64,000 bases of DNA from Diadema setosum (Eukaryota), in the NCBI RefSeq assembly GCF_964275005.1, contig NC_092698.1, forward strand, positions 37,680,597 to 37,744,596, given 5' to 3'. The position numbers and the translations under genes were made by a program. The notes beneath the pieces are model-generated. The model was not told the DNA's origin, did no database searches, and worked only from the letters and a program-made list of their open reading frames with translations. Shown here in pieces: positions 1 to 64,000 of this stretch (position 1 is the first letter of the stretch; each line of letters starts with the position of its first letter).

Positions 1-31
1 AGTGAAATGATTTATTCTTTTTTTCTTTCAG

Positions 32-151
32 GGCAATGAGCTCACCAACCTGATTGGTCACTCTGACAGAGTCTTGAGTGTTGCCATGGCAACAAATGGA
101 AAGGTGGTGACGGCCTCCATGGACTGCACGGTCAAAGTCTGGAGTCCTGAG
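32..151 (+). CDS. WD40-repeat protein, exon (phase 0-0); translates GNELTNLIGHSDRVLSVAMATNGKVVTASMDCTVKVWSPE
   Basis: Acceptor ttctttcag at 23-31 and donor gtaaga at 152. Open frame of 40 codons. Carries the WD signature GH...D..VKVW. Confidence 0.7.
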
Positions 152-264
152 GTAAGATACACTGTGTACTTCTATCATACTGCTGGATGTTCTGTGACTT
201 GAAGAGTTAGTTCTCGGGTAGTGGTGTCTGAGGTTGGCAATCCAGACAATACTCTGCTGTTAAG

Positions 265-2695: not shown

Positions 2696-3160
2696 GTGAG
2701 TATCAGGGAGATGTCTCCTGAGAAACCTTTCCTTTTGGCATACTGGGAGGGCAGCATTGGTAGGGAGATGGTATGTCTAGGAGCTGCCTTGTGATTGTAT
2801 GACTGTGTGGGAAGGTTTACATACTTAGATATATTGACGGGAAGCGACTGAACATTGAGAATTCTTTATGTGATGTAAAGAAGTAAGTATTAACCATTGC
2901 CTTGAAGCTGGTCAGGTTGATAACGTCCTGCAGGCTTGGGGAAAGATAATTCTTCAGATCTGGTAGCACTTTTATCAAATTGTTTAGCTCCATAAGTCCA
3001 GATACAACTACTTAAAGGAAAAATTGAGGAAGAAGGAATAATGATGTGTTCGACTAATATATTGCCAATCTTCCATTTAATTATTTAGAACATTTTGGAG
3101 GCATTTAGATTTTTCATTAAAGCTCATAGGCTGTTGGCTTTGTTGTGTTCTGTATTGTAG

Positions 3161-3328
3161 GAAGGACCAGACATTCTACCTGAACACCTGCAGTTTCCAG
3201 TCCATGCCAGCTCCAGTTACATCTCTGTGCTATGACGACACCCATGACACGCTTTACATCGGTACCTGGGCCTCTGTCATCTCGCTGAGGAACTTCTCAA
3301 GTGGGAAGACCAAACAGAACACCCTCAG
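3161..3328 (+). CDS. WD40-repeat protein, exon (phase 2-2); (V)KDQTFYLNTCSFQSMPAPVTSLCYDDTHDTLYIGTWASVISLRNFSSGKTKQNTL + ag
   Basis: Acceptor tgtattgtag ends at 3160. Donor gtagac at 3329. Phase is consistent with both neighbouring exons. Confidence 0.65.
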
Positions 3329-3802
3329 GTAGACAAGCATCCTTCTTCATTTTGAAGGGAATCAATTCTATTCTTTCCAGTGGTATTTCAAACTTTTGAA
3401 TTGATTGTCACTGTGAAGGACAATTATATTACCAAAGGTAAACTTGAGGGATAACAAATCATATAGGTATGTAATTGAGCAAAAGATAAAATTCCATTCT
3501 TGCCTCATTACAGTTGTATGGCTTGAATTTAGAAAATAGTTTATCATGTTGTTTGGTGATATCATTAGGATATTATCAATAGGAGAGCCGAGGATTTCAA
3601 TGTTTGTTTGTTTTTTTCTTTTAGTATGATGTTCTTTTTATTCAAGTGATTGCCATATGATAGGTATGAGGGAAAATGTTTGTATGTTGCCACCTTTTTT
3701 TTGGAGGGATGGCAAGAAATCACTTCTAATTGCACTTTGGGAAAGTTTTGAACCATGCACCCACGACGTAGAAGTCACCTCTCTCTCCTCATGCCCTCAT
3801 AG

Positions 3803-3899
3803 TCTACCAGACTGGGTCCTGGATGTACAGTTGGCCAAGGACAAGGGTGTGGTTGCCTCGCTAGCCAACAGCTCTGTGGCCTACTGCAAGATTGTGGAG
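3803..3899 (+). CDS. WD40-repeat protein, exon (phase 2-0); (S)LPDWVLDVQLAKDKGVVASLANSSVAYCKIVE
   Basis: Acceptor atgccctcatag ends at 3802 after a pyrimidine tract. Donor gtaggt at 3900. The phase closes the split codon ag|t. Confidence 0.6.
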
Positions 3900-4565
3900 G
3901 TAGGTTCGGGGTTCAAATCTTAAATGCAATTTTCAACCAGTAATTTAAAACCAGAAATTTTTGTTTGCATGAAAATTTTGTGAACCTTCTGAGGAGCCAA
4001 GATTCTGCAAAGTAAAGTGGATGCAATTTCTTTTCTTTTTTTCTACACAATGCATTGAATGCAATTCACAAAAGTTTCATGTCGCAAAAAAAGCTGTCGG
4101 CTCCAATTCCTGACAGTTTCGTGCCATGAATGTTTCGTTTTGCAGTAATAAGCATGCCAGTTATTTACTGTCTTGAATGGATGACCCTAACCAAGCTCAT
4201 ACATAGTACCTCTTGACTGTCCAAAAGTGAGATGGCTATCAAGGACGGTTACATCTGTAAAGAAACATTACTTTCACAGCTAGTATTTTTCAGTCTTTAA
4301 CAATATGTTTATTTTAATTGTGATAAACAAAGAGATTGAAACTGACATAAGAACAAAAGTGGAAATGATATTGACACCAATCTATCCAGTAAGTATTTCA
4401 ATACTTTTTAAATGTTCTCATTACGCAGAGCTTACATTAGTAGATTTGAATACACAAATGTTGACATATATGTTCTGTAGTTGGCGAGAAACAGCTTGTC
4501 ACTGTTTTTGTGGAATTTCTCTGGTCAATATTCCTCATAAGGCGGATTAATTTCTGTTCCTACAG

Positions 4566-4748
4566 AAACGTGTGACAACTGTGGACATCCCAGGCACTTT
4601 CCCTCACCCGTCTGATCCTTGGCAATATTCTCTGACCCTTGCCCCTCCCGAGCTGAAGAGCGCCCCCAATGGTGCTTTCCTGACAGGAAATTCTCATGGA
4701 TCTATGATGACAGTGACTGAAAATGAGGAAACCAGCCTAGCACAGAAG
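4566..4748 (+). CDS. WD40-repeat protein, exon (phase 0-0); KRVTTVDIPGTFPHPSDPWQYSLTLAPPELKSAPNGAFLTGNSHGSMMTVTENEETSLAQK
   Basis: Acceptor tttctgttcctacag ends at 4565. Donor gtaaga at 4749. Open frame of 61 codons. Confidence 0.65.
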
Positions 4749-4995
4749 GTAAGAATAGAAAGACTGAAATTTTGATGCTTTAGCCTGAACTGCGTGGGAA
4801 GCATGTGTTTCATGTAAAGCTATATGTATATTACTGTAAAAGTGAACATTTTCATGCAAGTATTTTCTTGCACTGCTGAGGAAGATGAATTTCATGTCTT
4901 TTCAGTTCCATGGAACCAAAATGTTAGATAGTGTTGGATATGTCAGACAAAAATATTGTATTTTTGTGGCAGTTTGAGTTTGGGTGAAATGTGTG

Positions 4996-5016
4996 AAAAT
5001 TTCCACTTTTACAGTA
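4996..5016. mobile_element. Solo terminus of family-C MITE
   Basis: aaaatttccacttttacagta is identical to the family-C right TIR. Confidence 0.4.
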
Positions 5017-5245
5017 TTTGGTTTACGTAAGGACATAGAGCATGATCTGTAAATTCTTTCACAATTTCTTGTGATTCAAGCGTAAATTTTAACCCAACAC
5101 AAATGCTAGGAGATGATGCTATGCAGCATGAATGGATTTACTTGTGAAAATTCAAATTGTTATAATTAGCAAGTTATTTACATCAGTAGTAATAATAGTT
5201 GTATGGCTTGTTTGTCAGGGATTAGAAATTGGTACTAAACATTCA

Positions 5246-5339
5246 TTTTAACCCGGTGAGGATGAGTACCAAGTATAGGGCAGGTGTCTATGGGAATTGT
5301 GTGTTGTAGCAAAATCAGTTCGTCCTCAATAGGTTAAAG
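5246..5339. mobile_element. Family-D mini-MITE (~95 bp), TIR TTAACCC[AG][GT]TGAGGAC
   Basis: ttttaacccggtgaggatgagtacc...gcaggtgtctatgggaattgtgtgttgtagcaaaatcagttcgtcctcaataggttaaag. Copies are at 23521-23614 (reverse orientation) and 35937-36031. Confidence 0.6.
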
Positions 5340-8085
5340 TACTGCAAACATGGAACATACAAGACACTGTAAACATTCTTTGGCACAGTCAAATTTACAG
5401 GAAAAGCAGATCATTGAAATGACCCCCTTTTTTTTTTCTTGTGTGTGTGCGTGTGTGTATGCATGAGCATGTTTTGGCACAGAACAAATGCGCGCCTGAA
5501 TTGTAGAACATGTCTCCGGTATGCACACATGTACATTTTGTGGTACTGCAATAAATGAATCGGATATGAAATAAACAGTTTTCTAAAATCATCTTGCCCA
5601 GCTGAGGGCAAAAGATTTTGTTGCACAAAACTTCAACCTGGACAGGATTATAAAGAGGAAAGGATCGCGTTTCAAACGACTTTCATCCTTTCATTCACTG
5701 ATAATGCCCCATGTCCTCCGGCCATCACACCTCCCAGTCTAGGGACCGCTATCCCCAAGGGTGGGCGTTTTCTTCAGTCTCCCATTTCAACCGCAAAACA
5801 GACTCAAAATGTAAAGACAGCAACCTTCTCCCAAAGCCTGTGTAAACTTGAGTCAGAGGGCGCTAGGAAAGGCTTGTTGTGGTTCTGAGTGCACATTTCA
5901 GCACCTAAAAGGCGGTAGCAGTCCCGGGTCTGGAAGCCAGAGGGAAGGCTGATCACGTCATACGACCGTGCCATTCCAAATTCACCCAGGGTAACACAAT
6001 AACAGTTTGTTGTAGAGTGTATCGTCTTTCACCAGGGATGTGCTTTTGACTGCTGGCTGCTTGTCACATGAAAGATAACACGGCTAGATTTCATAGATAA
6101 TCATGCAGTAATATGCCATTTCTCTTTTCATTTCAATCTGAAGCATGAAATTGAATATCTTTCCATATATGAGCAGCTTTAATTCTACAAATGGAGTTGT
6201 GTATGATGGTTTAAGCCCATGTTAATTGGCAAAGTCACTATGCCTTCAAAGGTTAAATGACAGAATGATGCCGTGATCAAATACGAATTCTGTGCAGAAG
6301 TTAGATAAGTCTAGAGTTCCAAACAGGGGAATGATTTTCTTTTACCCCACTTCTATTACTTTGACTTCATTCCTAGGCTTTTGGTAAGGAGAATGATTTT
6401 GTCTAACAAGTTGATCCCATCACTCAATAGTCTCTACATCATAATTTTGTGAGTAAATTCTTTCAGGAAATCATGAGCATTATATAGATGATTTGATCAC
6501 AATAAAAATCACAGTTGTGTGTGTAATAGATTTACTTTCATCTCTTAGTAATTTAACAACAAAAAAGTGCTGCAAAAAACAAAACAAAAAAAGAATACAA
6601 ATGTGGCCAGCACTTTCCAGTGTTAATGGTATGCCAGCATGAGCAATGGTTTACATTGATATTTTTAGTTATTCAAGTGTTTGAATTGAAGCAGTTCCTG
6701 CATGTAGAGTTGGAGAAAAATGTCAATTTTGGCAGTGTTTGGGTGGAGTGTAAACCAAGATGTTTGTGTGGAGTAATTTGAGGCTGGAGGAGGTGCCTTC
6801 CAGCTCCCGGCAGAGTTTGTGGTGGTGTCAGAATGCAGTTATCTGCTTCACATGAGGGAATGTTGTCAGGTTCTCTCCACCGGTGATGACAGACCAGGAG
6901 TGACATCTGGGAGGGAATGTGCCTTTAAGAGAAAGCCATGCACAGGGTGGGTATCAATGACCCACAGATACAGACCTCCCTGTGAAGAAATAACCCCCCA
7001 TCCTTCATCCAGTCAGGATGTCGTCCGTTGACAACAAATTTCCTGAGTTGACAATATCTCTCTTCATGATCTCACCCCTCCAGTGCCAGGGCTAAAGATT
7101 GGGTTACAGGAGCAAGGGCGTAAATGATTTTTGTTTTATGTACATATATTGCTATTATATTGAGGGTTTTTGAGAGTTGTTGAATCTCCCTTGCTGTAGG
7201 CCCCCATCACTCTATACTTTCTTACTAGCTGCATCCTTTGTAGTGAAGTTTCCCACCCCCTTCTCCCACCTTTGACAATCCCCCATTTTTGCCTCTCTTT
7301 CCTCTCCCAACCTCCAGACATCTATTTTATCTTTCATCCCTTTTCAGAAGTTTATATGTACCAAAAATAATTTCTTCATCGTATCTGCCCTTTTACCTGT
7401 CAACTTGTAGGGATCTATGTCAATTTTTTAGCAAATCCATTCATTCTTGTCTAACCTGTATCTTTCTGTAGCAAATACATGTTTAAGTTCCCTTGTTTTT
7501 ATCAATTTCTTGTATTCTACCTTATACATGCTCATTGTTTGTCCTCTCACCTTTACTTATTGAAAAATCATCAGTGACTTTAAAAATTCCATAAGGTGTT
7601 CCCTGTGTGCTTATTTCTCCCTCTTTCTCTTTTAAAATCTTTTAAAGAACCTGCAGGGTGCGCTGTTGTTTTCTTCATTATCTTAGTCATCCTTGATATT
7701 CCCTTCTACATAATACCATAGATCTTAAATATCATTTTAGATTTAGTACTACCAGTTCCTGCCCATTTCCAAGTTTTTCCTAGTAGTATGCCATCCAGTT
7801 TTCCTCAGTTTATCTAATTTCACAAGGGATTCAGACATGTTCATGATGATTATAGTACCTGGTTCATTAGTTAATAGGGAACACATTTACATGTATTGAC
7901 AATAATCACCCCCCCCCCCAAAAAAAAAAAAAAAAAAGAAGAAGGTACATAGGCCCCAGTCAATTATTGAAAATCATCTCGGATGGAATACATTGTAATA
8001 GGTTGAACAAGTTTACATTATGCTTGTCAATATTGTGGTTTCAACACCACATGCTTGCCTTCCCTGAAGTTGATATCTCTTTTCT

Positions 8086-8137: not shown

Positions 8138-11100
8138 CTTTGTTGCTCATCTGTTATTAATTCTTTCTGTTTTCTCTGTCAGATTATCTTTAGGGTTTTT
8201 TTTTTTCTCTCTTATATTCCCCTTTTTTATCTTTCTCTTATGTGTTATAAGTAGAATAGCCTTTGATAAAAATTAACCGAACTGTGTAATGAATAAGATG
8301 TGCATCCATCGGTAGAATAATATGATATTATATTCTGTCTAAAAGATGTACCCAAATTTGAAGACAAAGTACTCTGTCCAAGCAGATTCTTCTGGTGATA
8401 TTTTACTGTTTATTGATTTGAAGGAGGCTTTTGTTGTTGCTAGGCAACAGTTGCTGTGGTAGCCCCTGTACAAGGAGGAAGTTTGAAGAGGCTCAAATAA
8501 TCACCTCCAGGGAACAAGAGAGATTGAGTGGCAAAGTCCAATGAGATATTTGATATGCCCAGAATTAGATATGACTGCTATGGGATCAAATGCCTATCAA
8601 ATGAGATTGAAAGGATAAGGCATGGCATGTGCAATGATTCTATTGGCAGTCTTCTGAAACTCTTTGACATTTATTTATTTATGTGGATTTAGCATCTTAT
8701 GGGGTGCATCATAGGTCAAATTTTGTTCCAGTTCGCATGTTTTGCCAGCATCGCAATACATTTTGATTCCTGGCTGTTTCTGTTGCTTGTTGCGTCTTGG
8801 TAATTTTTTGCACTGAACATCACTTCATCTTTCATATGGCTTTATCGTGAGATGTTCAGAAGTATGAATTATTGCACTAAGATTGTCTCAAGACAAATGT
8901 CTTTTGTCTTCTATTATGTCAACTGAACCCAGAAAAAAAAAATTGCTTGTGAAGGAAAAATAAAGTATTTTACATTAGTAACTTCTGCAACTAATTTAAC
9001 AACAGCAAAAAGTGCCCATAAGCACTCAGTGATTACATAGTTTGCAATTTTGTACAGTGAATGATCCCATCACATAACTGTGAGTTATGTCTGTGCATGT
9101 ATTGTAATGACTAGTTAATTCTTAGGGATTGACAGATGCATGGTGTACAAATTTTGCAGAATACAATGCAAGAAATTAAAAACTATTGATGTATCATATT
9201 CATCTATATGTATAATAACAAATTAGGCCTACTAATTTTGTGAGGAAGAAAATGACAAATTGATTTTTTTGCCTGTGGGGATTAGCTTTCTAGGATCTAC
9301 TTCCTGGGATGTTTTTCATAGCTTGTTGGAGACATGATGAGATTATCAGTGTTTAATCAATTAGATGATGTCTCCCATTGGGCAATATCCACAAATATCA
9401 CGTTTCATGACTGTGATTTGATTGCTTTTAATTTCATTAATTTGGTTGAAGGCTTTGATGAAAGATGAAACTGTTTTTCATCATAAATTATGTATATGAG
9501 GAAGAAACAAGGGATTTTATTGCAGACATTGAGCATGCATACATTCTTGATGAACATGGAACTTCAAGATGAAGTTTTAGATCTGATGTTTTTCAGTTTG
9601 TTGGATAATTTGTTGTTGTTGTTGTTGATATGGGATGTAGTAACTTAACTCTAATTTCTGGAATCTTGTTTGGTTACATATGATGAAAGAATTAAATGTC
9701 AAAAAAACTTATGTGAACAGAAAAAAAAAAAATAATTTGCAATAGAAAATGTGATCAACTCCATCTGCGACACACAGAGGCACAGGTGGGACTATGAGAG
9801 CTGAGTGTTTGTGGAGGGAGACCTCATTTTACCTCACCCAGGAGTAGGAAGCAACTGCACACCCTTATCAATCCACCTCCAATTACCAGCTACACTTCAT
9901 GCCCCGTCGGCTCTCAAGAACCCGTGAGATATAATTTGTATGTTCCTCTCTGAAAATATCATCCCTTATAGGACTACTTTACTACTCCAGTAACCCTCTC
10001 CCTCCAAAGTCCCACCCCTCTCCACCTAAACTCCCTCCTATAAAGTGCAATCAGCACCCTTAGGCCTTCCACCTGCTCTCCGGCGAGTGTCTAGCGGCGT
10101 CAGAGAGGCAGGGTCCATTTGCTGCCGTTAGGATTCATTGGTCCTGTGGGAAGGAGATAAGGGTCCAGCTGGGAGGGGAGGGGGGTAAACTTTGTGAAGT
10201 GATGTCAGAACATCAGCAGGTGCTCCGATTTAAGACTACCTAAAGTAAGATGCCCATGGACTTTTGAGAGGAAACAACACTGATGCTATCACCTACTGGC
10301 TCCAGCTAGACCCCGTTTAAATCTGCATACCTCGGTTTGGATGCACCTAGCTTCAAGGAGGCAAATATGATGGAGAAATTTGGTTTTTAGCGATAAGACT
10401 CACCAACGTCAGTGATTCCTCATTTGACCGACTTATGAGGAATGAATAATATCATTGGATTCTAATAGATGTTGACCCGAATTTCACTTGAGCGAAAGTG
10501 ATAAGAATCTTATCATAAGTTCAAGGGAAATGAGCTGAAATTTTGAATCAAGGCAAAATCTGTCCTGTGATTTGTTGATGAATTACACCTAGTTTCAGCT
10601 GATACTTTTAAAATTGTGTGTTCATCTGCATTTCCTGCATATAGTCCTTTATATCAAATGAAAAAAATGTATCCTCTGTAGGTATGATAAATATCAGTCC
10701 AATTCTTACTATTTATTCACAGAGGGAAAAAAAAATCACAAGATTCATTTTCAATCCAGTGCCAATTTTAGTTGTGAGTCAGACAAAATTTCTCTCTATG
10801 TATGTAGCTACCCTAGTGGATACATGTTATGTTTATGATGACACACTAATATTTCTTATGAGCTCCAATTTTTTTAGTTTGATTCATGTTGATTTAATGA
10901 CTCATTCTTCTACCAAAAGACAGTATGATAGCACGGGTCAGCTGTCACAAGAATCAGTTTTGAGCGTGGCAGTGTTTGTTCAGCTGCCGTAGAAGAAAGA
11001 CTGACAACATAAATTGCAAGCTACGGAAGCAGTGTCTTGGTTTGGAGTCTTTATTTTCATGGAAACCAATGTGACTGAGATCACAGTAGATAATGCTGCT

Positions 11101-27239: not shown

Positions 27240-29485
27240 AGGTAACATGCCAATATGGGACCCATATGGGCATACTCCGGGCCACGTGGGCCATCTGGGT
27301 TAGGGTGAATCCCATATGTATTTAGCGTCAGACCCATATGGGATAACCCATATGGGTTTTTTAATGGGACTGCCCATGTGGGTATCATAATGGAAATGAA
27401 CTGGGCAAACCCATCTGGGTAAGATTGTTAAATGCCCATATGGGTTACACATGTGAAAAAAATGGGTAGACCCATCTGGGTGAGATATGTAAATACCCAT
27501 ATGGGTCTCATATGGGTATAAAATGGGCAAAGCTACCTGGGTAAAATATGCAATGCCCATATGCATACCATATGGGAATCTACTGGGTGAACCCATCTGG
27601 GTAATAAATGTAAATATCCATATGGGCTTCATAAGGGAATGAGCTGGGCATACCCATCTGGGTAAAATAAGTGAATGCCCATGTGGGTTTCGTGTGGGAA
27701 ATAAATGGGCAAACCTATCTGGGTGAGATATGTAAATATCTACATGGGTTTCATATGGGAATAAGCTGGGCAAACCCATCTGGGTAAAATAAGTAATTGT
27801 CCATATGGGTTACACATGTGAACAAAATGGGTAAACCCATCTGGGTGAGATGTATGTAAATGCCCATATGGGTTTCATATGGGTATAAATTGGGCAAAGC
27901 TATATGGGTAAAATATGCAAAGCCCATATGCATACCATATGGGAATCTACTGGGTGAACCCATCTGGGTAATAAATGTAAATATCCATATGGACTTCATA
28001 TGGGAATGAGCTTGGCATACCCATCTGGGTAAAATAAGTGAATGCCCATGTGGGTTTCGTGTGGGAATAAAATGGGCAAACCCATCTGGGTGAGATATGT
28101 AAATATCTATATGGGTTTCATATGGGAATAAGCTGGGGAAACCCATCTGGGGTAAAACAAGTAAATGTCTATATGGGTTACACATGTGAAATAAATGGGC
28201 AAACCCATCTGGGTGAGATATGTAAATATTTATATGGGTTTCATATGGGAATGAGCTGGGCAAACCCATCTGGGTAAAATAAGTAAATGACCATACGGGT
28301 TTCACATGGGAAATGAATGGGGAAAACGGTCTGGGCAGTACATGTAAATGCCCATATGGACTCCATATGGGAAGTAAATGGGTTAACCCACCTGTGTAAT
28401 ACATGTAGCCTATATGCCCATATGGGCTCCATATGGGCATGGAATGAGCAAACCCATATGGATGAGATATACAAATGCCCATATGCATACCATATGGGAT
28501 ACAACTGGGCAAACCGATCTGTGTGAGATCTGTCAATTTACATATGGGTTTCATATGGATATGAAGTGGGTAAACCCATCTGGGTAAGAGCTGAACATAT
28601 CTTTTTTGGTAACATATGGGAAAGAACTGGGCAAACCCATCTGGGTAAGAGCTGACCATATCTTTTTGGGAACCTTATGAAAAAAAAAAAACACTAGGCA
28701 AACCCATCTGGGTAATAGATGAACATATCTATACCATATTAGAGCGAACTGGTCAACCCATCTGGGCAAGAGATGAACAAAATTATGTGGGTACCATATG
28801 AGCATAAATTTGGCAAAACCCATCTGGGTAGGAGATAAACATATCTATTTGGGTACCATATGGGAATGAACTGAGCACAAATCTGGGTAGGAGATAAACA
28901 TATCTATGTGGTACCATGTTGGAATGAACTGGGCAAACTCTTGAGTAAGAGCTGAACATATCTTTTTGGCTACCATTTGGGAAAGAATTGGGCAAACCCA
29001 TCTGGGTAATAGATGAACATATCTATGTGGGTATCATATTATTGGAATGAAGTGGACAACCAATCTGGGTAAGAGATGAACATATCTATGTGGGTGCCAT
29101 ACGGGAATGAACTTGGTAAACCCATCTGGGTTAGAGATGGACATATCTATTTGGGTACCTTATGGGAATGAACTGGGCAAACCCATTTGGGCAGGAGATC
29201 AACATATTTATGTGGGTAAAATATTGGAATAAACTGGGCAAACCCATTTGGGTAGGAGATGATGTGGGTACCATACTGGAATGAACTGGGCAAACCCATC
29301 TGGGGAATAGATGAGCATATCTATTTGGGTATCATAGGGGAATGACCTGGGCAAACCCATCTGGGGAATGGATGTAAATGCTTATATGGGTTTCATATGG
29401 GGTCAACCTGGGTAGAACCATCTGGGTAAGATATGCAAATGCCCATATGGGATTTACATGGGAATGAACTTGGTAAACCCACCTG
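27240..29485. repeat. Satellite-like tandem array with a ~60-bp unit containing CCCATATGGG and ACCCATCTGGGT; higher-order repeat of ~375 bp (e.g. 27409-27786 vs 27786-28160); a variant unit from ~28560
   Basis: The motifs recur with regular spacing. Spurious stop-free ORFs appear in the window's six-frame ORF track (27300-29001). Confidence 0.8.
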
Positions 29486-32877: not shown

Positions 32878-33830
32878 GCAAAAATATTAGCCACGTTACC
32901 CAGATGGGACCCACGGTGTACCTATATGTGCTATCTTGGAGCCCCCATATGGGTCCCATGTAAATATTGGGTGCAAATTCCTAGGGGCTCCATATATGCA
33001 TACCCATGTGGGACCCATGCTAAAACCCCATCTGAAGCCCATATGGGAAACCCACATGGTGCCCACATATTTACCACATACATTACCAAGATGGGTCCCA
33101 TTGGGATCCAATATGGGTCATTTTGGATTGCCCATATGGGTCCCATGTAAATCTAGGGTGCAAAATCCTAGGGGGCCCGTATGGGCATACCCATGTGGGA
33201 CCCATGATGAAACCCCACACAAAGCCCATATGGGATAACCCACACAGTACCCACATATTTACCACATACGTTGCCCAGATGGGTCCCACAAGGAACCCAT
33301 ATGTGTCATTTGGGATCGCCCATATGGGTCCCATGTAAATCTTGGGTGCAAAATCCTAGGGGCCCCATATGGGCATACCCATGTGGGACCCATGATGAAA
33401 CCCCACACAAAGCCCATATGGGATAACCCACACAGTGCCCACATATTTACCACATACGTTGCCCAGATGGGTCCCACAAGGAACCCATATGTGTCATTTG
33501 GGATTGCCCATATGGGTCCCATGTAAATCTTGGGTGCAAAATCCTAGGGGCCCCATATGGGCATACCCATGTGGGACCCATGATGATTTCCCAGCTAAAG
33601 CCCATATGGGATAACCCACACAGTGCCCACATATTTACCACATACATTACCCACATGGGCCCCATCGGGAACTCATATGGGCCATCTGGGACAGCCCATA
33701 TGGGTCCCATGTAAATCTTGGGTGCAAAATCCTAGGGGTCCCATATGGGCATACCCATGTGGGACCCATATTCAAACCCATATTGGGCCCATATGCAACC
33801 CATATGGGCATGTTACCTGGGTTGTAGTCC
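32878..33830. repeat. Tandem array of ~180-bp unit, about 5 copies (e.g. 33283-33463), orientation opposite to the array at 27240-29485
   Basis: The unit tacccagatgggtcccac...cccatatgggtcccatgtaaatcttgggtgcaaaatcctaggggccccatatgggcatacccatgtgggacccatgatgaaacc recurs in tandem. ACCCAGATGGGT is the reverse complement of ACCCATCTGGGT from the left array. Confidence 0.8.
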
Positions 33831-39322: not shown

Positions 39323-41983
39323 TATCACATGCCCTGATACGGTAGAAATTGTTGATTTGGCTATGCATCCGAAGATTGAAATGTTTCATTTTCTTCACTT
39401 ATTTCACTGGTTCCGATGAGTTATTATGGTATATCAAAGGCATGCTAAAATTTTTGGTTTTACAAAAATTCACACCTTTCCTTATAATTATAAAACTGGC
39501 AACTTCTTGATGATGGAAGGGGCTGCAATGTATAGATTTCCAGTGAATTTATTTGGAAAGTGAAAAATTCTGACCGTTATTTTCAGTACAAAAAGGGAGA
39601 GTATTTTTTTTTACTGACATGGGGTTAGTTTTCCATTTCTTAAAAAAAAAAAAAAAAAGATTTTCATACACAAAGTTGGGAGACATCATTTTTAACCATG
39701 CAAAATTTTGTGATGTGTACAAAGGGGATTATATGACCTTGAAGTATCATTTCTACTCAGCACACACACATCTCAACATCTCCATAATTATATATAATTG
39801 ATGCCATGCTGCACGTGAGTAATATTCAAGGTATACTCTGAAGATGTTGACAACATATTGTTAAAGAAGAGGCACCTTGGTGACTGCTGTACCACCTCTC
39901 TTTTTCTCATGGTTCCTGATACTGTTGCTCCAGTACCTCTTTGAAGCCTCCAAGATTCAGTTAGCTGATAATCAGCGTGATCTTCCATCATGTGATTGTA
40001 CTTGTGATACACTGCCCTTTACCTGTCCATGCAGAACTGACACAGTCCTTGCTGTGTGTATACGGATTTATTATTGGGTATTCTTTGCTTGGTATTGGAT
40101 TTCATTATCTGGGACTTTTTTTGGGTCTCGTTTCACCTCCAACTGCCATTATTCCAAGCTCTGAGGTTACAAAAGTGTAATTTTCTTCTCCGCCTTGTCA
40201 TGAGACCAGGAGGTACAGGGGGAATCAAAGGAACTGTGATCATGGGAGAAGGAAGAGTAAGTGGGACTAAGTTGCTGCAAAGATACGGATGCACCAATAT
40301 CCTCCTTTTCATGACAAATACTGTAAAACCAGAAATTTTTGTGTACATTCAATTTTACGAATTTTGGGAAAACATTCGCGAAATTAAAATGCGTGCAGAA
40401 GTTCGTGTCTACACCACGCATTGAATGCCACTGGCAATTCATGAAAATTCATGGCGTGAAAATTTTTTGCTTTACATCGCAAAAATCATTATCTTCATGG
40501 TATTTTTCCTTCCAAAATGTATGGTGTAAGCAGTCACTGTAATTTTTGGGAAATTTCTGAGCAAAAGTGTTCGAAAAAAATTGCTATTCCTGGCTGAATA
40601 ACTTTGAAATAATGATCAGTGAGATATATCACGATTTGAGACTGGAGCATAATTGCATTTTAGTATCAAGATTTTGTATAAAACTATTTATATATAGTAC
40701 ATGGTGAGGCAGTGATATCATCAACCCCCACATTTGCATATTCATGTTGACCCTTCAAGAAGTGTTTTTTGAAAATAAGCGAACTTTCACAATTTTATAA
40801 CTTCCTGAATATTTGTCTAATTTTATAACTTTTTAGAAGAACTGAGCATTTATTACTCTGAATCCTTATTTTTCTGTAGCTTAATATCGACAGAATATTA
40901 GAGACTTTTGTTGGAAGTATGACCACCTAGTGTACCTTCTTCAAAGTGGAAACATTGTTGAACAGTGCCTTTAAGCTGAATGTTTGTCTGGGAGGATTAT
41001 GATTGTGGTCATAGCATCCTACAACCCTCTCAGTCCAGAGCTAGGCCCCAAATAGTATGTTTAATAGCCAGTCAATGACACCCTCAAGGTTGAATCTTTA
41101 TTCTCATCTAATTCCCTCCTATAAATGAGTACAGCTGCCATCCTAGACTCACTAATCCAGGATTATGCTGTCTTGAGGACCCCAGCTATCCATTGCCCAA
41201 CTCTGTATGCATCAAATCGTATATACTGGATGAAGTGTAGGCATCTCAAAACAATATCTGTATGGTGTGTATGATGAATCAGACCATAGAACCAATTGTT
41301 TAGTCTCTCTTGATGCCTTGTTCTCTGTGTATTGATGGATGTTATGTTTCATCTGACAAAAGATAGTAATGAATTGCTAAAACCAAGACTTACTTTCCCA
41401 TTCAGTTTACAATGTTCAATTCTGTTTAGCACCGATTTCACTGGAAGGGTTTAATGTAGGTTGACACGATGAGCTAGTCATTTTGTAATACCTCATAAGA
41501 AACAAACAGTGACGTACTTTTGACGGACTGCTAATGGCAGAATTCCAATGAGGAGTGCAAGCATTCATGCAGACTTACCAATGTAAAGACTCAGATAGTA
41601 CTTTGTTTTGCAAATGCATGAAAGACTGCTATTTTGATTTAATACCGGTAGTAGGGATTTCCCCCCATGTGTTACACTCTGGATGAGAAGGAGAGAAGCA
41701 CATTGTGATATATAACAGTCAGACATGATAGACAATAATGAGTTCTGGGACAAAGTAGTGTGGCATTCAGAGTCAAAGTAAACATTGAAAGGTAAACAAG
41801 TTCAATCAAGAAAAATGTTCATTCCTGTTTAGTGAGATGTATCATTGTCTTTGTAAGGCTGTTGCACTTCAATACCTTTTTTTTTTCTTTTGCACATCAG
41901 AAGTGTTTACTCTGTGACTATGATTTGATTAATTACCAGGTACAGTTTCTTCTTCCTCTTTTCTTTCTTTTGTTTACCTGCAG

Positions 41984-42103
41984 GTTGGTCAGTTCTTCTG
42001 TCCTTCCGCGGTCACTGCCCTGTCCACCCAGTCTGGGGCCAGTAGAGATGTACTCTGTGGTGACCGTCTGGGCAACATCTACCTGCTGACGTGGAAGGAC
42101 TAA
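41984..42103 (+). CDS. WD40-repeat protein, terminal coding exon; VGQFFCPSAVTALSTQSGASRDVLCGDRLGNIYLLTWKD*
   Basis: Acceptor ttgtttacctgcag ends at 41983. The frame is open from the phase-0 junction to TAA at 42101-42103. It follows a roughly 24-kb intron. Confidence 0.65.
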   Translation, partial: VGQFFCPSAVTALSTQSGASRDVLCGDRLGNIYLLTWKD

Positions 42104-48700: not shown

Positions 48701-49440
48701 TCAAAGCTGAACCTTGAAATCTACATCTATATATATATAAAACTTAAGACAAAGAAATAAAAAATTTATACATGTACAAAATTCTACGTCATTATTTACA
48801 CCAAACATCATATTAAAAGGCAAAAAGGTATATACCTTTTTGGTCTTTTCCTCTATGAAATCAAATAATTTTTTCCATAAAAGTAGTGTTTTAGGACAGT
48901 GTACAAATAGATGAAAAGCAGTTTCCTGTTCTTGACTACAAAACATACAGTCTGGGTGTTCTATTTTTTTAATCTTAAATAAGAATGCATTTAAACCAAT
49001 AATATCATGAAAAACCTTAAAATAAAAGGAACGAAGTTGTGTTTCAACAGTACATTTATAGTTATTCATATGAATAACATCCCACTGAACTGTTTCATCA
49101 TTAATGGAGAAGAGGTCTTTCCGCTTACCTATTCTTTTCTCACATGAGGAGTCACAATATACATTTCTTATTACCGAATAAGCATGTTTAGAATTTTTTT
49201 TTTTCACCAGCTCTGACACTATTTTATCAAACATATCTTCATCGGTATCCAAGGAAGAATCAAACCATGAAAGATAGATACCATTCATTAAAGAAAGGAA
49301 AGAAATCTGAAAACAAATGGGTGTTTGACGATGCAAACAAAATAGAATAAGAATTAGGAGTAGGAAAATGTAGAGTTTGTTGAAGAAGGCCGCTTGGGGA
49401 AAGAAGGTGAATTGTATTAAGAAGTGTGAATACAAAACAA
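48701..49440 (-). mobile_element. 5'-truncated non-LTR retrotransposon ORF2 C-terminal fragment with CCHC motif
   Basis: A 244-aa ORF on the - strand ends with HPDCMFCSQEQETAFHLFVHCPKTLLLW, a C-x2-C-x11-H-x4-C motif typical of the LINE ORF2 C-terminus. The poly-T run at about 48137-48152 on the + strand could be its poly(A) tail on the - strand. Confidence 0.55.
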
Positions 49441-54609: not shown

Positions 54610-55655
54610 CTACACATATGCATCAAATGTGATATCTTGAACATTTTTGAAATCACTGCTCCCAAAGGTAAACTGGACCTTTAACTGAAGAGGTAACTGA
54701 TTCCACAATTTTGGTCCCATAACGGAAAAAGCACGATCACCATACCCATGTTTTACTCTGGGTGTTTGGAGTAAGAATGCATCTGATGATGAACGTAGCC
54801 TTCGTGTCGGATTGTATTTTTGAACAGAATTACTTATGTATATTGGGGAAAAAGAATGAACTGAATGATGTACTAATAACAGAATCTTGAAAATAATCCT
54901 TTTTTCTACAGGTAACCAATGTAAGGAACGGAGAACTGGTGACATGGAATCAAACTTATTAGTAAAAGTTAACAATCGGGCAGCAGAATTTTGCAACCGT
55001 TGAAGTTTTGTGACATCTTTTTTTGAAAGATTACACAACAATGAATTCGAAAAATCCAACCGAGAAGAAATCAAAGCATGAATAAGTATCTCAGCTGCAG
55101 ATTTAGACAAATATTTCCTTATGAAACTTAAATTACGCAACTGATATCGAACATTCCGCTGAATATGAGTTACATGACTTCGAAATGACATTTCCTGATC
55201 AAATATGACACCTAAATTACGGGCTGTTTTCGACGGAGTAATGCAAGTGCTACCGATGTTGACATGACATGACTGATAATCAACTTTGCTTAACATATGC
55301 TTTGATCCCAATAACAGAAACTCAGATTTATCATCATTTAGTTTAAGGCCATTGGATGTAAGCCAAATTTTCAGGTCTTGCAAACATGCTTCGAGTTTTA
55401 CAATGGCGGATGACAATGAAGACACAGTGGGTTTAAAAGACAAATAAAGTTGTATATCATCCGCATAACAATGATAACTAATACAATGCTTGCGAAATAC
55501 TTCACTAATTGGTTGCATATACAGAGAAAAAAGCAGCGGGCCTCCAACAGAACCTTGAGGTACACCAAACTTTGTCATAGTTTTACAAGAGGTAGAATCA
55601 CCAATTCTGACATAATGAGATCGATCACATAAGTAGGATATAAACCAATCACCTT
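54610..55655 (-). mobile_element. 5'-truncated non-LTR retrotransposon (L2/CR1-type) ORF2 fragment: RT domain plus C-terminal tail
   Basis: The - strand frame reads ...SYLCDRSHYVRIGDSTSCKTMTKFGVPQGSVGGPLLFSLYM...YADD...LQRLQNSAARLL...LRSLHWLPV...RAFSVMGPKLWNQLP. These motifs are characteristic of L2-clade ORF2, as established for the family. The frame extends upstream of the first Met to about 55653, and there is no endonuclease or N-terminal RT. A possible 3' tail is the (AAT)n tract at 54008-54040. Confidence 0.7.
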
Positions 55656-59572: not shown

Positions 59573-62500
59573 TTGGCTTGACATACTAAAATCTAAGCTT
59601 GCCTTCTGTTTAATAATGTTGTATGGCAGCTTGTTTTGTTTGAACTGACTAGACACAGATCTGGAAGTAAATTGGTGGAATGTAACAAGGTTACACACTG
59701 AATGTTTCAGCAACTTGTGGTGAAACACAAGTCATGCTCCACTCTCCTGACATCAAAAAGTCAACCAAAATGCTCACCAGCATGTATTGGTTTGTCATTC
59801 TCTCAGAGAGAGAGAAAAAAGAAAGAAAGATGTATTACAATAACAAATATGGTTTGACATTTGAAACTGGGTGAAAGGACTACTGAGCAAGTGGCCTCTT
59901 GTTTCATATTTCCCGTGGTTAAAAGCAACAGAAATCACGTTGTTGGCATTATAAAGAGGAAGTGTGGGCAGAACATGGGTTTAAAAAGAAATAATCCACA
60001 CACTTAAAAATTTAATGCTAATCACATGGTAATCTCAGGGGATTTAGCTAATCCTGTGTCAGACTATAAGGCACATGGAACAAACCACAGCCTGTGTACA
60101 CTCATCATTCTCAACACATGTACGTTTTCACTGCTGGGGAAACAAAGTGCATTTGTCGTCAGAATTTGGACAGCTTGGAATGACTTTCGACAACAGCTGT
60201 TGGTGCGCGACACATGAATGAAACATTCAAAGGCACTTTGTTTTCTGAGTGGAATCACTGGAATGAATCGTATGAATACAATGCCTCGTTTATAAATCTT
60301 TAGTAAGAATCCTCCTTGCGGTGGGTTAGATGCAACTCAGAATACAACAAAGACGACACATCACAATGTTTATTGTTTAGTCAAGTATTGATACTTCTTT
60401 CCAGATTGACTCATTACTCTTTAATGTTAAACCTGGATGGTTTCTTTTAGACCAACGAGGAGTAATATTTTGAACAACACATTTTTGAAATGTTCAAATC
60501 AATCTAATCTGTAAACAAATTTTAACAAAGACATACATGACCAGATAAAAGCAAGATATCTTGAAAAAGGGAGAGGTTGCAAGCTGAAGTAGCCAACTTT
60601 ATGTACTCATTAAGGGAATCTTTAATCAAGTGACTTCACTGAAAAATGAAATAGAATCTTACCATTGATAAATAGATAGACTCATGTACTATTATGAAAC
60701 ACAACTTTTCAAAGAGAAGAATGTTACAAGCTGGTTTGTTAAGATCCTACATTTAATGCATATGATATATTTGTCAAAAGCATATTACATCCGCAAGCAT
60801 GAGAATGATATTAGGCACAAAACTTCAAAAAATTGCACGAGATATACATATTTTCATCTTCAAGGTAAAAAATAAACTTGTCTGCATCACACTGCAAAAT
60901 TACATCTTGCATGAATTACATTTAGTTTGAACACTACACATTACAATGCCTTTCAGTGAGCACTATACAACCTTGTATCTGATATCAGACTGACAAAGGG
61001 TTGATAAAATCTCTTTTTGTCTCTGCGCACTTCAAGAACACAGAAGTGATTAACCATGAAACTTCAGCATGCTACAGCCATTTTCTCTTTTTGTTTTGAT
61101 TTTGAAAATAACTTCTCTTTCAGCCAAATCTGGATGGTTTTAAAATGAAACTCAATATGTACATTCTCACTGCCAGAACTATAGTACTGTTTATATTTCA
61201 AAATCAATCGTATAATATTACTTGGAAAAGCTATCGGTTCTCATTGTCACATATATCGCAGAGTAATTCTAGATGGTTACAAAAGGGGGAAATCAAAAAA
61301 CAAATAGATTGCTCAGTCAGCTAAGAAGATTATCTTTCATAGAAATTCCTTTAAAGTGGCAAACAAAACACTGATCAATAAGAGCAGGTAAATTATAAAA
61401 CTTAAGCATACCATTTCAATGAACAATATTCATGGAGTTTTATAAAGGGGAAAATATTTTAAGACAGAGATGGATTGCTCAATGAACAAAATATATTTCC
61501 TTTCATGGAAATTTTCTTTACAGTGACAAACAAAACACAAATAAATAAAACCAGATGAATTTAAAAACTAATCCTTAGATCATATCACTGATCAAAATTC
61601 ATGAACTGGTACCAAAGGCATCATTGTCTCACACTGCAAGAAGTATGGTACAGTCAACCTTGCCTAACTCAAATCTATTTGGACTGAAGAAATAGCTTCG
61701 ACTTATGGAAATTTGACTTACAAGGGATTAAAATCAATAGAATATGAAGAGAAGAGGACTTGAAGAGACCTTCAACTTAGGCTATCATTTGACTTATGTG
61801 AGGTCAACTTAAGCAAGGTGAACTGTACTTCCAAGTTATACTCACTCTTTGTACATATTTACATGATATGCCAAATTGAGTGAAGCAAGATGTCTTCAAC
61901 AGGGAAAATGTACCAAAATAGCAAATATCAAACTGGCAACATATCCCTTCCAATGACATACACTTGAAATTTAAGAGGATTTTGGAATTTGGAAATTTCA
62001 AAAAGAACTCATGAAGACCTATTCAATTTTGAAAAAGAAAAATTTCAAATATGATATTATGTACATCAGGCACAGCTATCATGAAATGGTGGGTTTCTCA
62101 AGGCACTGCTTAAAGAACACTAAAAATTTATGTTGAAAAATTATTTGGATTTTTTTTTCTTCAGAAAGATATTCCATTAGTATTTTCCATTACTCAAAAG
62201 ATGTAGACAAGTGATTCAATGTATCATCTCTGAATTTGTGTTGCATAAATAGCTTTCAACCAACGCGATCATTAAAAGTATAAATTTGTACATGTCAATC
62301 ATAAAAGACAATACTGTACATTGCAATTGATTATAAAGCATAGGAGGTACAGTAATGTTCTGTGCTATGATCCACAGATTTTTCTTACCAGAAGAAAACC
62401 TGTGTGCTCAATAAAAATTTTTCACAAGTAAAAATTGCTTCCAGCATTGTTCCCTATCAAAGCACGAAAGTTGGAAAGCTGTGTTTGGTGTGTTTGTTTG

Positions 62501-62733
62501 TTCAGTTTCCATACCAATATGAGAGATATTCTACTGACTAAAACAGTTCACTAGCCAAAGCAATGTGCAGCTTCCTCTGGAAGAGGTTCACCTAGGACAT
62601 TGTTGTTACTCTCAAAATATACACGAATGTGACATACATGTATGTATCCCAATACCATTATGAGATCATGGATGTGAAACAGGTGGTAAACTTCCCATAG
62701 TTGCAGTGTACTCTATAACCTCTGTGAAGAATA

Positions 62734-63772
62734 TCAGAGGTCCAAACCTGTATCAATAACAGCCACATCTTCACTGGACGTTCCCCCGTAGAGCACGTCT
62801 AGGGCTCTCTTACAGTCACTCACTGTGGTCTTGGCAAGGAATTGGCACTTTAGCTGGTCTGAGAGGGACACGCCCCCCTCTTGGGATGCACTCCCTAACA
62901 GTGCTGAGATTGCCATCTGTGAGACAGCGTTGGCACGCTCCACCGCCAACCATCTCTCCAGTGCTCCATCCAGGGCACCTGGTGTCGCGGCATTCTCTGT
63001 AAGAAAGGTGGCAGGTGGGCCCCACAACAAGCACTGAAGTAGAGTCACGGCTTGATCACAAGTTAGCCTGTCTTCAGGCTTCTTAGTGAGAAGTTTGCAG
63101 GCAATGGTATGGAGGCCCTGGGAGAGAGGTGACTTGACAGGAATGTGGGGTAGATCTTCTTTGGCATAGTCAGAGATGATAAGGCTTGTGCGAGTTGAGA
63201 ATGGGTTAGCATGATGTAAGAACTCGTACACAAGGATACCCACATCAAATTCATGGCATTTTTGCTCCAGCTTGGATGCCACACCCCCCTCAGCTGGTGA
63301 CAACACAGGAGCCGCGGTTACTACTTCCGCTCCGATCAAGTGGTTGATGACCAGTCTCTGACCACCACCGGGCAGCCCACTGTTGACCAGCAGGAGGTGA
63401 TCCAACTTAAGGCTCTCCAGACACATGTGGTGGGATTGCAGCTGGCACAAACCTTGGCACAATTGCAGCAACATTGTGGCGACGTCTCGCTCATAGACAT
63501 CCGGGAGGCACTCATGCTTTTCTGCATTCTGAGTCACATACTCGGCAACGTTTACTGCCGGCAGACAGTCCGTGATGATGACGGCCGTCTCAAAGGAACC
63601 GTCTGGTTGGGGAGAACCACGAGACTTGCGCTGCTCCAGTAGTGAGGGGTTGATGGTGACAGTGTCTTTGGCAGCATGGCTGACTGAGATGAGGTTGGGT
63701 TGTGGAAACATGGATCTCGTAATGTCCGCCATGTGGAGTACTTGAGATGTCTTGCTGGGATTACAGCATACC
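62734..63772 (-). CDS. Terminal coding exon of a protein-kinase-like (probable pseudokinase) gene; partial gene, upstream exons lie outside the window
   Basis: A 332-aa ORF on the - strand (62734-63732) with non-repetitive, GC3-rich codon usage. It shows kinase C-lobe landmarks with degenerate catalytic motifs. The HRDLKxxN position reads CLESLKLDHLLL. The APE..DVWSLGVILYELL region reads SPAEGG...FDVGILVYEFLHHANPF. The subdomain XI region reads KKPEDRLTCDQAV. The frame stays open 13 more codons upstream of the Met, up to a minus-strand acceptor tttttatatttctgtag at about 63773-63789. The N-lobe is too short to be complete, so the exon probably begins at that acceptor. Confidence 0.6.
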
Positions 63773-64000
63773 TACAGAAATATAAAAATCATGATAGAGC
63801 GATCTAAATAGGCATACTGGATTTACAAAACTTCAATGATCACTGGCTATACACAGAAAAAAAAAAGTATTTAGCTGTAAATGGCGGATGTATCATTAAT
63901 ACAATTTCTGTTTACAGACATTATTATGAGAACCATTTTCATACAGTCTAACTCTAAAATCTAGAATAATTTCATGTTCAAAGCTTACAAAAATTCTGGA

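Follow-up and report, generated by a model that had tools for sequence, protein, structure and literature searches.

The last coding exon of a PEAK-family pseudokinase gene in the sea urchin Diadema setosum

Near one end of a 64,000-nucleotide stretch of the Diadema setosum genome (RefSeq assembly GCF_964275005.1, NC_092698.1, positions 37,680,597 to 37,744,596; the window), the minus strand carries a single long exon that reads as a kinase stripped of its catalytic motifs, and the question it raises is what protein it belongs to and whether that protein can still act as an enzyme. A preliminary description, made from the letters alone, had taken it for the terminal exon of a convergently oriented gene encoding a kinase-like domain with degenerate HRD and DFG motifs, and had found no named pseudokinase family for it. 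We find that a family can be assigned from sequence matches in the PDB and from predicted-fold matches: the exon is the last coding exon of the D. setosum gene of the PEAK family (NKF3; PEAK1/PRAG1/PEAK3), and it encodes the pseudokinase part of what we take, at a probability of roughly 0.85, to be a dimeric, catalytically inert scaffold. All features of this gene described below lie on the minus strand.

The coding part of the terminal exon (62737..63771) consists of 345 sense codons in phase 0, in one uninterrupted frame, and is closed by a stop codon at 62734..62736 that reads TGA and not, as previously given, TAG. Its 3′ splice site (63772..63788) is the string tttttatatttctgtag at 63788-63772, in which the pyrimidine tract tttttatatttctgt is followed by AG at 63773-63772. 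The polypyrimidine acceptor called earlier is therefore present, although slightly misplaced, the exon beginning at base 63771 instead of 63772. Within the acceptor, the TAG at 63774-63772 lies in frame, so that the coding frame cannot run further upstream. At the base composition of the window, 345 open codons are expected by chance with a probability of ~3e-11 per start, or ~4e-6 for the whole window. The length of 332 residues first given for the translation is correct as a count from the first ATG (63732) but falls short of the whole exon, which encodes 345. Its GC content of 53% (57% at third codon positions) stands out against 37% for the window and 29-33% for the immediate flanks, in keeping with the GC3-rich coding sequence that had been described, and every peptide string quoted from it (HMCLESLKLDHLLLVN, LVINHLIGA, SPAEGG...FDVGILVYEFLHHANPF and KKPEDRLTCDQAVTLLQ) is found in the minus-strand frame.

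The exon translation is identical to residues 1348-1692 of XP_072173691.1, a 1692-residue 'uncharacterized protein [Diadema setosum]' (alias P0012) that surfaced in an exhaustive profile search of 1.8 billion representatives. The exon product makes up exactly the C-terminus of this protein, whose final junction, ...SPGLM|VCCNPSK..., coincides with the acceptor predicted from the sequence, which bears out the exon as terminal; at the nucleotide level, the predicted last splice junction joins ...GGCCTCATG (ending ...CTCATG) to GTATGCTGT at 63771. A word-indexed homologue search returned only two metagenome open reading frames (ORFs) and vertebrate PEAK1 fragments and missed the identical RefSeq protein, which only the exhaustive profile search found; negatives of the word-indexed search are hence not readable as absence. 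A second word-indexed search, with P0001, the protein of one of the metagenome contigs, for named camarodont urchin orthologues gave nothing new. In Diadema antillarum, two proteins (P0160 and P0161) differ from the exon translation at 17 and 21 of 345 positions. These two copies, each of 1692 residues, lie on different scaffolds and differ from one another at few positions; they may be haplotigs or the product of a very recent duplication.

Is the exon part of a working gene? The homologous exon on the contig L001 (ena:ERZ26222911:ctg781922), which like L002 (ctg954831) is a low-coverage long-read contig from one ENA 'metagenome' sample, has its acceptor at the same codon (ttttatatcttcatccag|GTTTGCTGT), and its protein P0001 is 62-64% identical to that of Diadema. 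Between the two exons, identities at the first, second and third codon positions are 71/84/42%, and the pairwise nonsynonymous and synonymous distances are dN 0.27 and dS ~2.4, giving a dN/dS of ~0.11. The terminal exon is under purifying selection. A decaying or non-functional remnant, that is, a pseudogene exon, might be suspected from the destroyed catalytic motifs, from the fact that generic kinase profiles barely detect the domain, and from the fragments of long interspersed nuclear elements (LINEs) nearby. However, nothing interrupts the 345-codon frame, the intron has kept both its splice site and its phase, and full-length orthologues are found across deuterostomes, with intact 1692-residue ones in two Diadema species. 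Given that a dN/dS of ~0.11 against a 62%-identical homologue excludes a decaying pseudogene, we reject this reading as highly improbable.

Membership of the PEAK family is supported by sequence and fold alike. A phmmer search of the PDB gave PEAK1 (6bhc, 7e-42, with about 33% identity across the domain), PRAG1/SgK223 (5ve6, 2e-37; 6ewx, 7e-35) and PEAK3 (8dp5, 9e-8), with PINK1 at ~1e-12. The AlphaFold model of the exon product has a predicted local distance difference test score (pLDDT) of 70.7, with residues 67-330 confident, and in Foldseek it matches 6bhc, 5ve6 and 6ewx at ~1e-14, PEAK3 at 2e-8 and PINK1 at 1e-6. A model of the full C-terminal domain (435 residues, predicted template-modelling score 0.79) gave a template-modelling (TM) score of 0.81 against 6bhc (E 1e-22), 0.80-0.82 against PRAG1 and 0.73 against PEAK3. 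The PDB sequence search and the fold search thus concur on the kinase-like domain first seen in the translation. A profile search with the domain recovers proteins that NCBI names PEAK1, PEAK1-like or PRAG1; the Patiria miniata (XP_038058341.1) and Ptychodera flava orthologues are named 'inactive tyrosine-protein kinase PEAK1-like', and that of Trichoplax sp. H2 'Pseudopodium-enriched atypical kinase 1'. PINK1 structures being next-best in both sequence and fold, one could ask whether the gene belongs to PINK1 or to some other kinase family instead. PINK1 sequence scores are, however, ~30 orders of magnitude weaker, its TM scores are 0.55-0.6 versus 0.8 for PEAK1/PRAG1, PINK1-like sequences in the profile search retain HRD...N and DFG whereas the Diadema protein has no catalytic residues, and S. 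purpuratus has a separate PINK1. The probability of such an assignment is vanishingly small, and we rejected it.

The pseudokinase-domain portion (exon residues 1-252; 63016..63771) was delimited by the AlphaFold model, by Foldseek (6bhc/5ve6/6ewx/8dp5) and by alignment. The first codon of the exon is the one that follows the beta3 (VAIK) lysine position. Helix alphaC comes first (about 63709-63759); beta4 is separated by a disordered insert from beta5 and the hinge, beyond which lies the C-lobe through LLWGP, whose Trp (W250) corresponds to PRAG1 W1330. The kinase subdomains VI-XI recognised earlier are all there, but the list was incomplete, as alphaC, beta4-5 and the hinge have to be added. 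The catalytic loop, L118-E119-S120-L-K-L-D-H125 (63397..63420), aligns with L-E-S in place of H-R/C-D, such that the catalytic Asp has become Ser (S120), and His125 (63397-63399) occupies the position of the catalytic Asn. The DFG position, N143-H144-L145 (63337..63345), aligns with S-N-F / N-F-S of PEAK1 and PRAG1 and has no Asp at or adjoining it. The degeneracy reported for both motifs is thereby borne out by a multiple alignment. The activation segment is short, with the APE motif deleted, and the beta3 Lys is replaced by Met, the last codon of the upstream exon, which lies beyond the window (XP_072173691.1). For comparison, the motif at the DFG position of SgK223 is SNF (PMC5660093), and within the family PEAK1/PEAK2 lack the DFG Asp while PEAK1/PEAK3 have a changed HRD (PMC10279700); what we say of PEAK1's own motifs rests on the present alignments and on PMC10279700 and PMC5660093.

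As read from the sequence, phosphorylation by the canonical mechanism cannot occur in the Diadema protein, with Met at beta3, Ser in HRD, His for Asn and no DFG Asp. A cryptically active kinase that employs non-canonical residues, like WNK or some 'pseudokinases' later proven to be enzymes, would be in line with the strong purifying selection on the domain; PEAK1, moreover, was originally described as a tyrosine kinase, and some abstracts still term it a 'non-receptor tyrosine kinase'. Yet all four canonical catalytic residues are gone together with the APE segment, and the structures of vertebrate homologues show occluded pockets and no nucleotide binding (PMC5660093, PMC10279700), which makes activity of this kind very unlikely and led us to reject it. 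By analogy with those vertebrate structures, the loss of the nucleotide and metal ligands suggests that the pocket of the Diadema protein would be occluded as well and would not bind ATP.

The state of the catalytic residues in other animals puts this loss in context. At the beta3, HRD, catalytic Asn and DFG positions, respectively, vertebrates have K, HCD (PEAK1) or HRD (PRAG1), N and SNF/NFS, with APE present; Trichoplax has K, HRD, N and NFS, and amphioxus K, HYD, N and NFS. Hemichordates have Q, HGA/HGE, N and NFD/NFP; the crinoid Antedon has M, LST and N, with a DFG position that is not clearly assigned (VVDYL); the sea star Patiria has M, LRS, D and NLL; and the echinoids (Diadema and P0001) have M, LES, H and NHL. 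Cnidarian, priapulid and tunicate PEAK homologues are likewise degraded in the alignment. Loss of catalytic residues is hence common among invertebrate PEAKs and no peculiarity of the Diadema gene.

His125 and N143-His144 (63340-63345) are shared by the two Diadema species, P0001, P0002 and P0017, and not by Patiria. These histidines stand at the two positions that bind Mg2+ in active kinases, His144 being next to the DFG-equivalent Asn. The echinoid pair could conceivably make up a novel 'pseudoactive site' for a metal or another ligand, by which the scaffold would change its conformation; in that case the lineage would have repurposed the cleft, going beyond a mere loss of catalysis. We regard this as a long shot; drift might equally account for the pair. 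A milder and more secure reading can be had from the same alignment. Because ambulacrarian PEAKs have shed all of the catalytic residues that are kept in vertebrate PEAK1/PRAG1, and yet the domain is strongly constrained, the data argue that a non-catalytic function was already ancestral in deuterostomes.

How, then, might such a protein work? The N-terminal 1270 residues of XP_072173691.1, encoded upstream of the window, are 70% polar/Pro/Gly. Residues 1088-1105, in which Y1088-ENLGASRA is followed by PQKPAR (a PxxPxR motif), match the vertebrate motif TYSNLGQSRAAMIPPK around PEAK1 Y1107 / PEAK3 Y24 (TYSNLGQSRA), which is phosphorylated by Src and bound by the Grb2 SH2 domain (PMC10279719). 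The orthologues of Patiria, Antedon, Saccoglossus, Ptychodera and Branchiostoma have kept the Y-x-N-L-G motif. At its extreme N-terminus (residues ~11-35), the same protein has a Cys/His pattern, C-x6-H-x-[FW]-K-x3-C-x2-C-F-x6-H, that recurs at the N-termini of P0013-P0018 and P0020 and is thus shared by sea urchin, PRAG1 and amphioxus; it could be a small zinc-binding module.

We propose that the Diadema PEAK protein would be a dimeric, catalytically inert scaffold that works like its vertebrate relatives. The exon product supplies the pseudokinase domain from just past beta3 to the end of the C-lobe, plus the helices alphaJ, alphaK and alphaL, and these helices would combine with the upstream-encoded alphaN1 into a split helical dimerisation (SHED) module, as in the vertebrate proteins. 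The disordered N-terminal region of ~1270 residues would carry docking motifs, one of them the conserved Grb2-SH2-type Y-x-N-L-G site, through which SH2/SH3 adaptors would be brought to signalling complexes of adhesion and the cytoskeleton. We infer dimerisation, adaptor binding and this cellular role from the vertebrate relatives.

In vertebrate PEAKs, the SHED module consists of alphaN1 and the C-terminal helices alphaJ/alphaK/alphaL (PMC5660093, PMC10279700). The preliminary description had set aside the last ~90 residues as a non-kinase tail, which turns out to be no unrelated appendage but the C-terminal part of this PEAK dimerisation module. It comprises alphaJ (exon residues 264-292; 62896..62982), a predicted helix with pLDDT 85-96 that is also recognised by alignment; alphaK (residues 303-314; 62830..62865), recognised as a predicted helix and in alignments; and alphaL (residues 317-328; 62788..62823), a predicted helix that aligns with the C-terminal helix of PEAK1/PRAG1. 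The three helices have pLDDT values mostly of 85-96 and fall within the Foldseek superposition on 6bhc, 5ve6 and 6ewx, and the LLWGP, xWL and DxLxCQ(F/Y)L motifs align with the PEAK family. In alphaJ, W274 corresponds to PRAG1 W1354, and M286 stands at the position of F1366, a conservative change; in alphaK, D305 and C309 correspond to PRAG1 D1381 and C1385, both kept. Among echinoderms, the SHED tail is as strongly conserved as the kinase core.

Several observations weigh against the scaffold reading in one or another of its parts. Regarding dimerisation, Q306 replaces the dimer/N-lobe-anchoring hot-spot W1382 of PRAG1, with Gln in all ambulacrarian orthologues and Trp in vertebrates only, and a putative alphaN1 (construct residues 15-35 of XP_072173691.1), although it aligns with PEAK1 alphaN1, has a pLDDT of only ~45-50; dimerisation of the SHED type is accordingly predicted as plausible and not established. 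Regarding docking, the CrkII nSH3 motif PxLPxK, beside which the PEAK family has a 14-3-3 site, is present in none of the invertebrate orthologues checked. All that we say of the upstream exons rests on the database protein, those exons being beyond the window, and XP_072173691.1 is a RefSeq XP_ model and hence itself a prediction. Finally, against the Pfam Pkinase family (PF00069) the exon scores 24.2 bits and the full protein 19.1 bits, both below the gathering cut-off of 31.7, and neither the exon nor the full protein matches a PEAK-specific Pfam family. A Pkinase profile search was the check suggested at the outset, with a lack of matches to be held against a kinase-like domain; that outcome was nearly obtained, but it is misleading, as the kinase fold is clear in the predicted structures and the PEAK-family matches are overwhelming.

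The first of these points could be taken further. If PEAK scaffolding here dispensed with SHED dimerisation of the vertebrate style, the protein would be a monomeric docking protein, or would oligomerise through another surface, for instance the ambulacrarian-specific LPGGG loop or the alphaG face. The Gln at the W1382 position, common to Diadema and every echinoderm and hemichordate orthologue, favours this, given that mutation of W1382 to Ala renders SgK223 monomeric (PMC5660093), as do the Met at the F1366 position and the short alphaN1 region with its low-confidence model. On the other hand, the models predict all three C-terminal helices with confidence and place them over those of PEAK1/PRAG1, the residues W1354, D1381 and C1385 and the LLWGP Trp are conserved, and the tail is conserved among echinoderms to the same degree as the core. 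We consider a scaffold without SHED dimerisation unlikely, and retain the SHED-type dimer as the preferred reading.

Following alphaL, the exon encodes a disordered C-terminal extension of 17 residues (YGGTSSEDVAVIDTGLDL; 62737..62787), delimited by pLDDT <50 and alignments. It occurs in echinoid sequences (Diadema, and P0001 with ...RLIDSEIDL), whereas sea star, crinoid and hemichordate orthologues end right after alphaL without it, and vertebrate PEAK1 fragments have unrelated C-terminal tails. The echinoid tail, ...(V/L)ID(T/S)x(L/I)DL-COOH, has a hydrophobic-x-hydrophobic end that resembles a class II PDZ ligand.

As regards gene structure, only 229 bases of the intron fall inside the window, and for this reason the upstream exons are not visible in it. 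The layout can be followed in the two metagenome contigs. L001 carries PEAK exons at 7260-8033 and 10028-11053, and its protein P0001 is echinoid-like (LES...H); L002 carries them at 4221-7619, 8829-9553 and about 9900-10906, and its protein P0002, whose ORF call begins ~33 codons downstream of the real acceptor, resembles the Patiria protein. Both are arranged as a giant exon for the disordered region, followed by a penultimate and a last exon. In both, the penultimate exon ends in phase 0 (..AAGLM|gtgagt and ..TSVL|gtaaat) and the last exon starts at the same aligned residue, so that Diadema, L001 and L002 have in common a phase-0 intron immediately behind the beta3 Lys/Met codon. In vertebrate PEAK1, genomic ORF fragments and the spliced sequence part precisely between ...LQ and ICKSK/ICRSK, which suggests that the intron sits at one and the same position in echinoderms and mammals. 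Downstream of the stop, a putative 3′ untranslated region, AT-rich and ORF-free, may extend over 60374..62733. Past the stop, ~2 kb of the minus strand lack a canonical poly(A) signal, with ATTAAA first appearing at 60757 and AATAAA at 60374.

The remainder of the window holds a second gene and repeats. GC-rich ORF fragments on the plus strand resemble exons of a WD40 beta-propeller (11-199, 958-1104, 1728-1898, 2517-2696, 3081-3329, 3630-3920 and 41933-42100). Fragment 11-199 (+) matches Pfam WD40 with 34.8 bits and also TEP1 propeller models, and fragment 41933-42100 (+) matches Beta-prop_TEP1_C with 38.7 bits, above threshold and up to the profile end, after which comes a stop. The fragments probably belong to a telomerase-associated-protein-1-like gene, with its 3′ end towards the PEAK gene. 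With these WD40/TEP1-like exons on the plus strand, from the window start to at least 42100, the two genes are convergent, just as had been proposed. Between them lie non-LTR retrotransposon remnants at 54610-55578 (−; RVT_1, 60.6 bits) and 48701-49435 (−; zf-RVT, 35.9 bits). Two satellite arrays are also present, at 27379-29485 (periods of 61 bp and 367 bp, 34.6 and 3.3 copies) and at 32893-33769 (period of 188 bp, 4.7 copies). As CCCATCTGGGTAA / TTACCCAGATGGG recurs, oppositely oriented, in the consensus units of the two, the arrays appear to be related and inverted. Long spurious ORFs within the satellites (e.g. 27751-28659, 302 residues) have no Pfam match.

Much of this was on record. A single PEAK gene is present from placozoans to amphioxus (PMC8699254, Ounoughene 2021), and S. 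purpuratus XP_030856156.1 appears as PEAK1_Spur in Table S1 of that work. The family, its presence in sea urchins and the gene model are thus all public. A 2021 review, citing the 2006 urchin kinome, nevertheless lists NKF3 among four human kinase subfamilies absent from sea urchins (PMC7854572). This statement is wrong: the S. purpuratus orthologue is published, and the Diadema gene is described here. NKF3 was missed in 2006 probably because the echinoid domain scores under the Pfam Pkinase threshold. A graded loss of catalytic residues across Ambulacraria was not found described in the literature searched, nor did a search for work on PEAK1 in sea urchins or on echinoderm pseudokinase evolution give anything specific beyond that Table S1. 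The importance of the locus beyond annotation is small, and the additions are modest, namely the naming of entries, the stepwise ambulacrarian loss and an explanation of the NKF3 omission. The Diadema 'uncharacterized protein' entries can be named PEAK-family pseudokinases. The stepwise loss of Lys, Asp and Asn in Ambulacraria, during which fold, SHED helices and Grb2-type docking tyrosine have persisted, amounts to a natural 'kinase-dead' series that supports a purely scaffolding ancestral role for PEAK proteins, and sea urchin embryos offer a single-gene system in which PEAK may be studied.

Among known proteins, PEAK1 (SgK269; 6bhc) is the closest to the Diadema protein, being the best match in sequence (E 7e-42) and in fold (TM 0.81). 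The two share a very long disordered N-terminus, an alphaN1 that is putative in Diadema, the pseudokinase domain and alphaJ-K-L; the absence of the DFG Asp; the LLWGP and N-W-L (alphaJ) motifs; a TYSNLG-type pYxN motif ~170-190 residues upstream of the domain; and, probably, an intron at the same place after the beta3 Lys codon. They differ in that Diadema has lost four features still present in PEAK1, namely the beta3 Lys, the Asp of H-C-D, the catalytic Asn and APE. The long acidic/Gly-rich inserts of PEAK1 (beta4-beta5 and beta7-beta8) correspond in Diadema to loops that are shorter and to an ambulacrarian 'LPGGG' loop, vertebrate PEAK1 has Trp in alphaK where Diadema has Gln, and the CrkII motif PxLPxK is absent from Diadema. 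PRAG1 (PEAK2/SgK223/Pragmin; 5ve6, 6ewx) resembles the Diadema protein nearly as well (E 2e-37, TM 0.80-0.82), including the SHED helices and the kept W1330/W1354/D1381/C1385, but it has an intact HRD...N and beta3 Lys, and its hot-spots F1366 and W1382 are Met and Gln in Diadema. PINK1, the sister kinase family and outgroup in the PEAK phylogeny (PMC8699254), is the second-best match and likewise has a kinase fold followed by C-terminal helices packed on the C-lobe; unlike the Diadema protein, it is an active Ser/Thr kinase with intact catalytic machinery and a mitochondrial targeting region, and has no long disordered scaffold region. The invertebrate PEAKs (S. purpuratus XP_030856156.1, Patiria, Antedon, Saccoglossus, Ptychodera, Branchiostoma and Trichoplax) are the Diadema gene's orthologues, with one gene per genome, the same architecture and conserved N-terminal blocks. 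While the degree of decay varies among them, the other ambulacrarian members have, like Diadema, lost both the HRD Asp and the beta3 Lys.

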